Virus record (IMG/VR): IMGVR_UViG_3300021167_000382
Coordinates: 128,001 to 192,000 of that record
Direction: 5' to 3' (one strand)
From: a virus
Taxonomy: Duplodnaviria > Caudoviricetes
DNA: 64,000 nt
In this document: positions 6,210 to 45,375 of the stretch, piece by piece
Position numbering within the stretch: the stretch's first letter is position 1
How the letters are laid out: each line of letters starts with the position of its first letter
The notes under the pieces: generated by a model
Seen by the model: only the letters and a program-made list of their open reading frames with translations
Databases searched by the model: none
Told to the model about the DNA's origin: nothing
Translations under genes and position numbers: made by a program

Positions 6210-8732
6210 CTAACTGATGATGGCGCAACTGTTATAGGTAAGATGTTTCGGCATAGAGACATTCGCGTCACAGAGAACTGTGATATCCGCTGCACTTAAA
6301 CTAGAGTAGCCGTTTTCATAATGGCTGATTAGAAAAACCTGACTTACATTGGCTTCATCGATGAGATACTCGATGATGCTATAAGCTGCTTTTCGATGCG
6401 CGTCATCCATCTTGACAGCGAATTCATCCAAGAACACAGGATGATGTTCGAAGCCCATGAATCGCATACAGGTGATCACGCACGCTAGGTGGATGATTTC
6501 ACGCATACCGCTAGACGTACTTGCGATATCTGGAGAACTGCCTGTGTTGTTTACATTCACAATGAATTTGTAATCCAGATCGATCTCATCATCACCTTCA
6601 GGCTTGATGGTGTCTAGAGATAACGGATAGCTCCATACTTTTGCAATGAACCGGTTCACTCGTTCAATGAACGTATTAATAAATAGACTCATTCCTTGCG
6701 CAATCAGTCCAGTTTTAGGAGAAAGTGCATCGATGGCTATGTTAACTAAACGAAGCTCGTCCTTATAACTCTGGATAGAGACCTCTGTATTTTGAATCAC
6801 TGCTTTCTTCATTGAGACCTGGGCAACAGAACGTTCTTTTTGAACAATTTCAGTTTTCAGGTTATTAATGAGATCACCAAGAACCCCGTCCAAGTAAGTT
6901 TCTATGGTACACTGTTCAAGTTTCTTAATCTCAGTTTGAAGATGGCTGAAACGTCCATAGAGGTCATAGATCTCCTTCATGGTCGATAGTTCTTCTTGTA
7001 ATGTAGAGGACATCAGCGTTAGTGTTGTGACACGCTGCTGAACCGTCTGGATAGTTTCTTCAAGCTCACGGAAAGCTTCCTTAAGCTTACCTTTGTTTTT
7101 GTTCAAGGCTGCTTCATACACAGCTTTCAATCGAAGCTTCTCATCGAGCAGCTTGTTACAGTTATCTAACATGGATAACGCTGAAAGATGTTGCTTCAGT
7201 CGCGTAGATTCATGTAAGAATCGTTCAGGGTATTTAGAGAAGACATTCTCTTTAGCCAAGTAGTTCCAGAAGGGTGACAGTGCTTCATACTGCTCCATTG
7301 TACTGGTCACAGTTCGCCGAACTTGAATGTAGTGATCGAACTCAGCCTTCAGCGCTCGCAGTCGTTCTATTTCTTTTGTTCGACGGTCGTAAGACTCTTG
7401 AGTAACCTTCAGATCATTCTGAAGATGTTGGAACTTGCTTAAGCTGTAGCCAAGGTGCCACGAATGGTTACAGTTTGGACAAGACACTTCGGCTTGTTCC
7501 TTAGATTTAAGCATGTCATCTATCTGAGTCTTGCTATAAGAGATCATACCAGCTTCACGACGATAAATATCTTCATGCATTAGGAGATCGTCCGCTACCT
7601 TCTTGTAACTGGAAGGCGTTACATCAGTGACTTCAGCTCTTTCAGAATAAGGCTGTAGTTCATCAGCACAATGCTGGAGCGCAGTGAGTGACATGGATAA
7701 CATATCCAACAGGTATCCCGGTTTATGAACGTCAAACGTAAATATCCAGGGTATGTCCATCTCAAGTAACTGACTTGTCGCTGTCTTCTTAGCGGTCAGT
7801 TCTTCGATCTCGTCTTTCAGTTTACCAAAATCAAGAGAATCGACTACTTGAAACTCTCTTAACTCCGATTCTATTTTCAGGTGTTGCTCGTAGCGTATTT
7901 TGAGTTCTTTTCTAGACTCGGTTAGCTGGTGCGATGTCGTTTGATACGCCGCCTCTAGTTCGTCTAATGATTTCCTAGAAGCAATACGCTCGTAGCGTGC
8001 GAACGCATCGGTGATCTCACACTGTAACGTATTATAAAGTTCAACGGAGGCACTACGTTGATGTTCAATGGTTCTCGGATCAACAGAAGTGATTTCTTTC
8101 GACATCAGAAGTGACTCGAGAATACCCCTCATCTCTTCAGCTTCGCGTTTTACGACGATTTCTTGCTCTGGGGTAAGCAACCCCTCAATCTCGCTCGATA
8201 AACGCTTCTGGAGCTGTGTAACGGTACCTTGTAGATCCCGTGCTCTATCCTTAAGGCGATTGAAGTACTGGAAAGCGTAAGTGTAGTCGACGTTATTCAT
8301 ACTCATGAAGAGTTTACGTCGGTCATTCACACTCAGTTCATGGAACAAAACTCGACCCGTCATCAACGCATGGAGTTCAGCGCTGTAGTTAAAGTGTTCT
8401 TTAACCAGTTCTTTAAAAACAGTCACAGTTCGACCTGGATTCAGGTTGACGCCATCACAGTAGAATTCAAAGAGATTGCCTTCAGCTGGAAAGCTTGAGA
8501 CTAGATAGTATTCCTTCCCTCGGAATTCAATCCAAATTTCCTTACTCCCACCTTTTCGGTATTCGGCAGGCACTGCTGGTAGGGGTGAGAGTTCTTTCAT
8601 CAATGAGGATTTACCGCTACCATTACTTCCAAGGATGATCTGTGTCTTTTCCTTAGGAGTGTATTCAATCCGATCAATCGATCGAAGGCTTAGCCGAAGA
8701 AAGCCTGTGAGAATCAGTTTTGTTATTTTCAT
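6210..8732 (-). CDS. sbcC: SbcC/Rad50-like SMC ATPase
   Basis: Walker A GSNGSGKS, long coiled coil, zinc hook CPNC, signature SSGMRE, Walker B VFLDE, H-loop LISH. Confidence 0.92.
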   Translation of the reverse strand: MKITKLILTGFLRLSLRSIDRIEYTPKEKTQIILGSNGSGKSSLMKELSPLPAVPAEYRKGGSKEIWIEFRGKEYYLVSSFPAEGNLFEFYCDGVNLNPGRTVTVFKELVKEHFNYSAELHALMTGRVLFHELSVNDRRKLFMSMNNVDYTYAFQYFNRLKDRARDLQGTVTQLQKRLSSEIEGLLTPEQEIVVKREAEEMRGILESLLMSKEITSVDPRTIEHQRSASVELYNTLQCEITDAFARYERIASRKSLDELEAAYQTTSHQLTESRKELKIRYEQHLKIESELREFQVVDSLDFGKLKDEIEELTAKKTATSQLLEMDIPWIFTFDVHKPGYLLDMLSMSLTALQHCADELQPYSERAEVTDVTPSSYKKVADDLLMHEDIYRREAGMISYSKTQIDDMLKSKEQAEVSCPNCNHSWHLGYSLSKFQHLQNDLKVTQESYDRRTKEIERLRALKAEFDHYIQVRRTVTSTMEQYEALSPFWNYLAKENVFSKYPERFLHESTRLKQHLSALSMLDNCNKLLDEKLRLKAVYEAALNKNKGKLKEAFRELEETIQTVQQRVTTLTLMSSTLQEELSTMKEIYDLYGRFSHLQTEIKKLEQCTIETYLDGVLGDLINNLKTEIVQKERSVAQVSMKKAVIQNTEVSIQSYKDELRLVNIAIDALSPKTGLIAQGMSLFINTFIERVNRFIAKVWSYPLSLDTIKPEGDDEIDLDYKFIVNVNNTGSSPDIASTSSGMREIIHLACVITCMRFMGFEHHPVFLDEFAVKMDDAHRKAAYSIIEYLIDEANVSQVFLISHYENGYSSLSAADITVLCDANVSMPKHLTYNSCAIIS

Positions 8733-42875: not shown

Positions 42876-45375
42876 TTAACCTCCTTGATGGGTGGCTTGA
42901 GCTGCATCCCGACGACTACGCCGCAACCATTCAGAGGTTGAAGCGATCACACTGTCCGTCATCGAGGCATTTTTCGAGAGTTCCAATGGTTTATCGAGCA
43001 ACAGCAAGTTGAAATGAGGGCGGAATGGGTAATACAGATCTTCCATGAAATGGTCCATGGCTGGCATGAAATTAACTTCGTCTACTAGTTACGTGGACTA
43101 TATCTTAGCAAGCATAGCTCGCTCCCCCCGTTTCGGAACAGTGTCTCTCGACAGTAATCCCTACTCTACTCGGTTCGTCTCCCGACGCCTTTCGATAGTC
43201 TCTGAACGTTCACCAGTTAAGGCGCTTCGCTGCTGATTGTACCTGACTCTCGATTTTCAAGCATATCGCGCTCACCGTTTCCAGTCACGCTGTAGCTCAA
43301 GAGCTTCATGGGTAGTTTCCAGCAATTAGAGGGGTTTAACGACGGCAACGTTATTTCTTTCTACCGTCATAGTCCTTATTGTCCAACTAAGTCGCCTATT
43401 AGTCTTAGTTCGGTGTGCGTCGACACCCGCACGACATCTCTGCCGTGAACAGATCATATCTTCACCTTCACCCGTGGTGGTAAGGTGCTTCCTTTTTCTT
43501 CCCCTCAGTGGCTTAGGGGTTCTACTCTACTCGGTTCGTCTCCCGACGCCTTTCAATGATCGTTGAACGTTCACCCTCCCGGGTGCTTCGCTGCGGGTTA
43601 TCTAAACTCAACTTCTTTTACCATACCCAGTTAGTTAAGCTGGCCGCGCACCACTTTCGTTTATGCGTTTGGTGTGTTGAGTAATAAAGACTTTCCCGTC
43701 AATTAAGGAAGATTCACTCTGATTTTTTCAAACCAGGTGGCCTGAGGTATCCCCAGCATTCATGGAAGTTGCGATAAGATCCGAAATTGAGACTGTAGTG
43801 TCAAGAGGGTTAGTCTTGAACTTGGTAATTCGCACTGTCTCAGCCGAACCTTGCATCAGAGATGGCTTTTGTCCATTCAGTTCGCTAGACTGAACCGGTA
43901 CGCTAGGTACCTGCTATAGCTTTCACTATAGAACAGACTATATCTTAACCTTCACCCTTGGTGGTCAGGTTCTCCCGTTCACCGCGCTTGCGGTACCTAG
44001 TCGTTGAGCACACACCTTACCCTCTCGGGCTATAGGCGCTTCGCTGCGGATTTCCCAATACACGTCTCTTTTACCATACCTGAGTGATTAGTTCAGCCGC
44101 ATAGTCTCTTTCGAGCGTATGCTTGGTGTACGTGTCTCTAAGGGGGTCCCCGTCAGTTAGAGAGATTTTACAGTAGTATTTCTACTACAGGCAACCGAGT
44201 TGATTGCGTTGGATGGTACTGATGATCGCACCATGACGACTACCCTTGATCAGATCCTGCATCATGGCATCCAGCTTCGGATGATATTTCCCAACATGAT
44301 CCATGAGGAAGTTGGTTGCTTCACCATGGGTCATACCGCCATGAGGATGATCTCGTCGGAGTAGAACGGCCATATGGTGCTGCCACCAGACTGTAACCCC
44401 AACACCCCAAGGCACATGGATCTCGTCATACTCATGAATCCCGTCATGCGAGGTGATCACCGCTCGGAAGCTATAGTTACCTCGTGTCCCATACACATGC
44501 TTCCGATACGTCCCAGTCTTGGGGCGAAGGTTGGTAGCGATGTAGTTTTCGTAGTAATCACACAACATCAGCAGAATCTTAGCAGTCCGATTCTCAATAA
44601 CAGTCGGGGTCTTGTCATGATAGTCGGTGTCAATGCTCAGCATCGTGTTCATGATGTTGTGCATGTCCAGTACGTGGGATTCTACGAAACGACCCAGGTC
44701 ATTGGCTTCCACCACCAACAGCGCACGATTGATCAGTGGTAGATAGTTGCAGAAGATGAGATGCCGGTGCGTCTGGACAAAGTATTCCAGTGGGTCAGTG
44801 TCTGGCGGCACACCGACCATATCCCGAGTTGTCTTGTGCAGATGGCTCTTGGTCACGAACTCCCCAGACCGGATGAGGTAGGAGAAGATCTCGTCAAACT
44901 GCCGAATGAAGTTATTCAAACCACGTGGGAGGCCGTCCGAGATCATCTTCGTTAAGATCGCTGGCCGTGCTTGCGGCACATAGCTTCGATCAATCAGCCA
45001 GCGGATGATGTTGCAACCCTTCTTACTGAAACGATGTTGAAGCATGATCAGTACATGCGGAACGATCAACGCATCAACACCCATCGGCTTACGGAACCAG
45101 AGCATGGACTTGATATCATCTTTGATGGATTGTTCCACAGGGGTCTTACAGGATTCACACAGCATACCCACATACTGCTCGCCACGGAGTTCACCGCAGC
45201 GACACTTCGGCATCATGGTGACCATATCCGCGGTATGTGTCTCCTTGATCAGCCAGTTAAAATATTCACGATCCCTTTCTGTTCTATTTGGAAGATCGTT
45301 GATGATGATGACTTCGTTCGGCGGAAGCGTTTCGAAATCCCTATTGTAGTTGACAAGTTCTTGAAAAACCGGCAC
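42876..45375 (-). CDS. rpoC: Non-virion RNA polymerase beta' subunit, N-terminal catalytic part (phiKZ gp55/56.1-like); spliced from 4 exons: 45375-44203, 43865-43755, 43374-43363, 43082-42876 (500 aa)
   Basis: CRCG..CESC zinc finger, K.G.YRKHVYGTR..FRAVI; joined exons restore QRN|PSLMQGS and MNA|DYDG|DEVN (NADxDGD). Confidence 0.9.
43083..43362 (-). ncRNA. Group I intron 3 (280 nt, no ORF; apparent terminal A)
   Basis: P1 exon GACGGU / intron GCCGUC; P AAUUGCUGGAAA, Q AAUCAGCAGC, R UCAGAGACUA, S AAGAUAUAGUC. Confidence 0.88.
43375..43754 (-). ncRNA. Group I intron 2 (380 nt, no ORF)
   Basis: Follows exon U, ends in G; P AAUUGACGGGAAA, Q AACCCGCAGC, R UCAACGAUCA, S AAGAUAUGAUC (compensatory P7 change). 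Confidence 0.9.
43866..44202 (-). ncRNA. Group I intron 1 (337 nt, no ORF)
   Basis: P1 exon GCAAU / intron GUUGC; ends in G; P AACUGACGGGGA, Q AAUCCGCAGC, R UCAACGACUA, S AAGAUAUAGUC. Confidence 0.92.

Follow-up and report, generated by a model that had tools for sequence, protein, structure and literature searches.

A four-exon gene for a polymerase subunit

We analysed a stretch of viral DNA of 64,000 nucleotides (nt), referred to below as the window, which corresponds to positions 128,001-192,000 of the 210 kb IMG/VR record IMGVR_UViG_3300021167_000382; coordinates are positions in this stretch. On the minus strand at 42876-45375 lies the gene for the N-terminal beta' subunit (beta' N) of a phiKZ-like jumbo-phage non-virion RNA polymerase (nvRNAP), an identification made by homology that runs along the whole chain. 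The gene is in four coding pieces, each pair separated by a group I intron without an open reading frame (ORF). All three introns fall around the catalytic NADxDGD loop, in a span of 45 codons, and the joined coding sequence of 1503 nt specifies a product of 500 amino acids (aa). The pieces are given here in the order of transcription, with a slash marking each insertion site.

45375-44203, minus strand: exon 1, 391 codons, GTG start, ends ...STIQRN
44202-43866, minus strand: intron 1, 337 nt, no ORF, site QRN/PSL
43865-43755, minus strand: exon 2, 37 codons, PSLMQGSAETVRITKFKTNPLDTTVSISDLIATSMNA (PSLMQGS...ATSMNA)
43754-43375, minus strand: intron 2, 380 nt, no ORF, site MNA/DYDG
43374-43363, minus strand: exon 3, a 12-nt micro-exon, GACTATGACGGT = GACUAUGACGGU = DYDG, the first two Asp of NADxDGD
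43362-43083, minus strand: intron 3, 280 nt, no ORF, no P9 hairpin, site DYDG/DEVN
43082-42876, minus strand: exon 4, 68 codons and a stop, DEVNFMPAMDHF..., DEVNFMPAMD..., opening with the third catalytic Asp

The sequence AGGAGG lies seven bases upstream of the GTG of exon 1 at 45375. A preliminary description of the region, made from its letters alone, had proposed these exons and introns, and every coordinate proved exact when the minus strand was read and translated piece by piece. That description also let the first ORF stop after QRN, which is right for the exon boundary but not for the annotated ORF (396 aa), which overruns exon 1 by 5 codons into intron 1 (QLGCL and then a stop). Its remark that ORF annotation misses the gene structure is borne out, as only this truncated 396-aa ORF is called.

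Exon 1 matches the gp55/56.1 chain of the solved phiKZ non-virion RNA polymerase (PDB 7ogp_A; phmmer, E 7.8e-39) and covers positions 3-380 of the PHROG 2987 profile (E 2.6e-91). Exons 2 and 4 align to uninterrupted homologues, exon 4 also to phiKZ gp56.1, and tblastn gave matches to phiKZ gp55 and gp56.1. None of the exon pieces had a match in Pfam. The genome carries a single copy of the beta' N gene. Taking together the evidence set out in the following sections, we think it very likely that this single-copy nvRNAP gene contains three self-splicing group I introns at its catalytic loop, and that these are most likely mobile introns that have piled up there.

Joining the exons restores the catalytic loop

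The preliminary description had predicted that removal of the three introns would restore QRN/PSLMQGS and MNA/DYDG/DEVN, and several comparisons bear this out. In PHROG 2987, exon 2 occupies positions 381-417 and exon 4 positions 422-476, which leaves free exactly positions 418-421, and these are filled by DYDG. The 12-nt exon thus does supply two of the three catalytic aspartates, as had been claimed, and the motif NADYDGD with all three Asp exists only once exons 2, 3 and 4 are joined. Alignment of the joined 500-aa product through the NADxDGD region, which had been suggested as a check, gave no gaps against 15 uninterrupted homologues, both through QRNPSLMQGS and through NADYDGDE.

A metagenome contig (L095) that is 89% identical in the region contains intron 1 and lacks introns 2 and 3. 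It reads AATGCG-GACTACGACGGT-GACGAAGTC without interruption and, seen more widely, ...ATGAATGCG GACTACGACGGT GACGAAGTCAAC..., which is the predicted ligated sequence of the window apart from synonymous changes. Ligation of the exons therefore restores the uninterrupted sequence found in this contig and in the gap-free homologues, and we regard the L095 allele as the strongest evidence for the predicted junctions. Over the 95 codons of exons 2-4, the window and L095 differ by synonymous changes only in 51 codons and by 5 amino-acid changes, which indicates that the downstream exons, the micro-exon included, are under purifying selection. A degenerate DNA pattern for the intron-less allele had 0 matches in viral contigs and 1 in metagenome contigs, namely L095. 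In the protein collection we found no longer proteins containing exon 4, which could have derived from spliced cDNA or intron-less alleles, and an exact look-up of the 63-aa exon-4 ORF returned no record.

We also considered that the spacers might stay in the RNA and that the subunit might be assembled from separate polypeptides made from the exon ORFs, which would divide this polymerase, already in pieces, once more. Jumbo-phage RNA polymerase (RNAP) subunits are naturally split (PMC7598289), and gene callers annotate the 396-aa ORF alone. However, the 4-codon and 37-codon pieces have neither a start codon nor a ribosome-binding site, and translation from the only ATG in exon 4 would leave out the third Asp, which is encoded upstream of it. 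Each of the three spacers, moreover, is a group I ribozyme core, and the phiKZ enzyme contains a fused chain, so that we give this explanation next to no chance. With splicing, by contrast, the four-exon structure means that a functional subunit needs all three splicing events, a contingency that the preliminary description had stated and that follows from the structure now confirmed.

Intron cores and splice-site pairing

The three spacers were tested for the conserved catalytic core (P3-P8 with the R and S elements) against the Rfam group I covariance model RF00028, whose gathering score is 50 bits, and all three match. Introns 1 and 2 exceed it with 62.4 and 51.8 bits, respectively, and intron 3 matches the full model, positions 1-253, with an E of 9e-10 in a local search. 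No sense-strand ORF of more than 43 aa occurs inside the three window introns. The earlier proposal of three ORF-less group I cores is thus sustained as regards the matches and the lack of ORFs, with the reservation that the score of intron 3 falls short of the gathering score.

In intron 1, the P1 helix is formed by the exon sequence GCAAU and the internal guide sequence (IGS) GUUGC (44195-44191), with a U.G pair at the splice site, and the last nucleotide of the intron is G. Introns homologous to it are found at the identical site in L008, L009, L010 and L095. Intron 2 is likewise preceded by U and ends in G, and it has a compensated P7 variant, GAUCA/UGAUC. Its 3' end is identical to that of an HNH-bearing intron at the NA/D site in L005, and it forms almost no P10 with nucleotides 1-4 of the micro-exon. 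The introns also have blocks of sequence in common, 54 nt at 91% between introns 2 and 3 and 40 nt at 87.5% between introns 1 and 2.

The P1 of intron 3 is the best of the three: AUGACGGU pairs with GCCGUCGU (IGS 43346-43339) over 8 bp, with a U.G pair at the splice site, and takes up nucleotides 5-12 of the micro-exon (8 of its 12 bases). Directly adjacent is a 4-bp P10, in which GACG of exon 4 pairs with CGUU (43350-43347). Across the 10 loci with an intron at the G/D site, the guide covaries with the Asp codon (GAC with GUC, GAU with AUC), and P10 changes in step with the first bases of the following exon, in a register that always puts the G of the third Asp codon first. The splice site of intron 3 would thus be set by the 8-bp P1 plus the adjacent P10. 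Because intron 3 uses nucleotides 5-12 and intron 2 makes barely any P10 with nucleotides 1-4, the pairing suggests that the two ribozymes need neither compete for the micro-exon nor wait for one another. The U.G-containing P1 helices announced in the preliminary description are clear for introns 1 and 3, whereas the P1 of intron 2 has an exon part of just 3 bp.

From the cores and junctions together we infer that the RNA is actually spliced. In each intron, free G would attack behind the U of the P1 wobble pair, and ligation of the exons would follow, joining QRN to PSL, MNA to DYDG and DYDG to DEVN.

Intron 3 ends in A

A 3'-terminal G is present in introns 1 and 2 and absent in intron 3. 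The tail of intron 3 reads ...CUAGUA, and in the sole frame-restoring junction its last nucleotide is A (43083; omega-A). Other borders were tried and rejected. Splicing after G43082 or G43085, moving the 5' splice site of intron 3 by one nucleotide, or moving the borders of the micro-exon each shifts the reading frame, introduces a stop or removes a catalytic residue. Splicing after GACG onto ACGAAG stays in frame, but the invariant Gly is deleted and no U.G pair is available.

Several observations weigh against self-splicing of three intact introns at this locus. Intron 3 lacks the canonical omega-G that all nine of the other introns at the G/D site (9/9) have at their ends, and both strands of its P7 have the same sequence as in a homologue with omega-G in L008, so that the guanosine pocket has apparently not been re-tuned and the second splicing step of intron 3 may be slow or impaired. 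Its 44.8 bits stay under the gathering score. The exon part of P1 in intron 2 is weak, at 3 bp (GCU with GGU or GGC). Furthermore, no splicing of the phiKZ gp56 intron was seen in a published ONT-cappable-seq study under the conditions used there (PMC10914365), although the solved phiKZ polymerase holds a fused gp55/56.1 chain (7ogp_A).

The same features could indicate that the gene is decaying, with an intron 3 that no longer completes exon ligation and a beta' N gene that is non-functional or poorly functional: omega is A where all 9 other introns at the site have G, P7 shows no compensating change, and the low score goes together with a missing P9. However, this is the sole copy of an essential polymerase subunit, none of its exons is damaged, and purifying selection on them is strong. 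The low score is shared by the omega-G homologue in L008, which reaches 45 bits, and intron 3 is homologous to other introns at its site that score 68-94 bits. Moreover, the same omega-A tail is present in four independent samples that show differences at other positions (the window, ERZ650241, SRR35946901 and SRR30521496), the additional ones having been found by look-up of the neighbouring 213-aa gene. In SRR30521496 (L101), the P8 stem carries a compensatory exchange of C-G to U-A, together with a change of G.U to A-U, which points to continuing selection on the ribozyme fold. There is also a precedent in an intron of the Coxiella burnetii 23S rRNA, which, to judge from a title cited in PMC3428280, was reported to self-splice without omega-G. 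We therefore find decay highly improbable. Because four samples share the tail, one of them with the compensatory P8 change, intron 3 is probably a working natural omega-A intron. Intron 3 of L010 ends in the same omega-A tail, and no further introns with this short 3' tail were found in viral contigs.

Introns at the same motif in related phages

Relatives were recovered by an alignment-based scan; a single-protein scan of viral contigs gave none. The interruption count covers 80 of 123 IMG/VR relatives. The number of S-element motifs was tried as a stand-in for that of introns and dropped, since it comes out lower than with Rfam. About 24 of the 80 are interrupted inside the same 45 codons, the number of introns ranges from 0 to 4, and there are six or more insertion sites (RN/P, IA/TS, N/A, NA/D, NAD/F and DFDG/D). 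Many homologues in the protein collection end at ~390-450 aa, compared to ~490-500 aa, and the matches of several Erwinia, Serratia and Vibrio phages end at the G/D site.

The arrangement in the window is thus not unique: relatives carry one to four introns at this motif, and phiKZ and the Pseudomonas phage KTN4 are interrupted there too. The 12-nt D(F/Y)DG micro-exon recurs in L013, L041, L044 and L086, whose proteins are 33-48% identical to that of the window, and micro-exons of 9-27 nt are found in these four as well as in L010, L019, L022 and L024. The arrangement in L024 (6143-7664) is more extreme than that of the window, with four Rfam-confirmed introns and the successive micro-exons CCAAATGCTGAT (PNAD, 12 nt) and TTTGATGGT (FDG, 9 nt). 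L013 (6195-7741) has apparently four introns, three of them by Rfam, and its DYDG micro-exon lies at 7461-7472; a further short exon predicted before DYDG should fall near 7024-7098.

Other relatives differ in which sites are occupied and in what the introns contain. L005 has one HNH-bearing intron at NA/D, L007 has an HNH intron at DLIA/, and L008 has introns at RN/P and G/D. In L010 (= L097; 2279-5175), whose exon 1 is 99% identical to that of the window, intron 1 contains a 221-aa endonuclease-like ORF, and intron 2 is replaced by an intron at DLIA/TS that carries a 341-aa I-HmuI-like HNH ORF, resulting in a 27-nt exon, TSMNADYDG. Thus, HNH_3 or I-HmuI-like ORFs lie inside introns of L005, L007 and L010, and comparison of the L010 sequence with that of the window shows intron turnover between near-identical genomes.

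Contigs from the lineage give further indications of variation. Contig mSE_Wul7 (ENA ERZ22666005) has the same 396-aa ORF and its next gene is 355 nt closer than in the window, which suggests another intron complement. Several short-read assemblies (the Logan contigs L098, L100 and L102) are cut off just inside exon 4, at its first bases, probably because the introns are polymorphic and have repeated blocks in common.

This distribution bears on whether the stack is a selected regulatory device, in which three splicing events, one of them slowed by omega-A, would time or gate nvRNAP synthesis, and in which skipping of the micro-exon would yield an in-frame but dead and possibly dominant-negative subunit. 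All introns are in phase 0 and the 12 nt of the micro-exon are a multiple of 3, so exon 2 can be joined to exon 4 in frame; the preliminary description was right on this point by simple arithmetic. The omega-A has also been kept across 4 samples. However, intron number and position vary between near-identical phages (the window and L010) and from 0 to 4 among relatives, as would be expected of selfish elements that come and go and not of a conserved regulator, and the close relative L095 does without introns 2 and 3. Skipping would itself be disfavoured and should be rare, since the end of exon 2 offers no match to the IGS of intron 3 and omega-A would serve the intron 2 ribozyme poorly as an acceptor. 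Nothing indicates that the dependence on three splicing events serves regulation or that the micro-exon is in fact skipped, and we consider such a device improbable.

A likely origin by repeated homing

The number and position of the introns vary, endonuclease ORFs are present or absent in near-identical copies, the cores are mosaic, and the insertions concentrate in a single hot spot, all of which points to selfish mobile introns. The logic of selfish introns settling in the conserved DNA of essential genes is established for phage introns (PMC12908238, PMC11620839). From the distribution we likewise infer a homing history. As the window introns contain no ORF and relatives at the same sites contain HNH ORFs, the window copies look like ORF-less derivatives, most likely descended from mobile introns with HNH homing endonucleases that have since been lost. 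The introns would have accumulated at the loop because it is the most conserved DNA of the gene and hence a target of several endonuclease families. The 12-nt exon would then be the gap between two popular homing sites, NA/D and G/D.

A different view of the same pattern is that the stack was itself selected as armour, each occupied site destroying the target of a different homing endonuclease from a co-infecting jumbo phage, with omega-A delaying nvRNAP; this we regard as unlikely.

Comparison with known systems

The preliminary description had stated that group I introns occur in the phiKZ RNAP gene, and phiKZ indeed has one intron at this motif and KTN4 two. The phiKZ gp55/gp56 (HNH)/gp56.1 locus is the same gene as that in the window (7ogp_A, E 8e-39), and its intron also lies within the NADFDGD codons. 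This single intron contains the gp56 HNH gene, sits at APN/ADFDGD and scores 75.6 bits with Rfam. KTN4 (L096:5539-8241, KU521356.1), which belongs to the phiKZ species, has two group I introns (87.5 and 74.7 bits), and the one that it has in addition to phiKZ is at HRN/, the window's site 1; its intron ORFs and last exon are annotated merely as hypothetical proteins. The introns of phiKZ and KTN4 each contain an endonuclease ORF and create no micro-exon, in contrast to the three ORF-less introns and 12-nt exon of the window, and the phiKZ site is N/A where the window has NA/D and G/D.

Staphylococcus phage Twort orf142 resembles the window in that a single phage protein gene is interrupted by three group I introns, and, going by the title of Landthaler and Shub 1999 as cited in PMC11878797, ribozyme-driven exon skipping was reported there. 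It differs in being another gene, with no polymerase catalytic loop. In the Coxiella burnetii 23S rRNA gene, the introns Cbu.L1917 and Cbu.L1951 flank a 34-bp exon and one of them is without omega-G, as far as can be taken from the title of Raghavan et al. 2007 (cited in PMC3428280 and PMC5423948). The similarity to the window lies in two group I introns around a very short exon, one of them without omega-G; the Coxiella case, however, is a bacterial rRNA gene with an exon of 34 bp, and that of the window is a phage protein gene with an exon of 12 nt. The non-canonical terminal nucleotide of the Coxiella intron is reportedly also A.

The gp210 intron of PhiPA3 interrupts a gene for a virion RNAP beta subunit (PMC11620839), the Bastillevirinae have genes that contain two or three introns (PMC11878797), and intron-rich jumbo genomes are known from the Jug phages (PMC12880540). 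What these share with the window is either mobile HNH group I introns at conserved catalytic residues of jumbo RNAP genes or several introns in one phage gene. They concern another subunit or another gene, and the portions of those sources consulted mention no micro-exon. In placozoan mitochondrial cox1, exons of a few bases lie between group I introns (PMC5436844); here too, the exons are tiny and the gene is highly conserved, but the gene is organellar, not viral, and some of its introns are spliced in trans.

Group I introns in jumbo-phage RNAP genes (PMC10914365, PMC11620839), three-intron phage genes (PMC11878797; Twort), intron-rich jumbo genomes (PMC12880540) and mitochondrial micro-exons between group I introns (PMC5436844) have therefore already been described, and the principle of mobile introns at conserved phage active sites is well established. 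A literature search, which was not exhaustive, returned no account of a micro-exon in the NADxDGD loop, of a hot spot with six sites or of an omega-A intron.

The structure has practical consequences for annotation. Gene callers give a truncated 396-aa protein in which the catalytic loop is missed, here and in about a third of related metagenomic phages, so that surveys of jumbo-phage RNAPs arrive at too few intact enzymes. The locus can also serve as a natural test system, with at least six insertion sites in 45 codons, micro-exons of 9-27 nt that serve two ribozymes, and an omega-A intron beside omega-G relatives. It permits tests of how tightly packed group I ribozymes choose their splice sites and of the way in which an essential viral gene is shaped by competition among homing endonucleases.

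Related introns outside the locus

The genome has a fourth group I intron outside the window (G000:C1:61131-61439, plus strand; locus L001, 1501-1809), with an Rfam score of 83.4 bits. It splits a gene for a DnaB-like replicative helicase, whose two parts match positions 1-384 and 391-501 of PHROG 3213, and it has an identical block of 37 nt in common with polymerase intron 2. A megablast search of the region against GenBank phages gave a sole match, of 60 nt at 88% identity in the core of intron 1 (window 44039-44098), to an unannotated stretch of Enterococcus phage iF6 (MT909815.1, 28217-28276) that is presumably a related intron.

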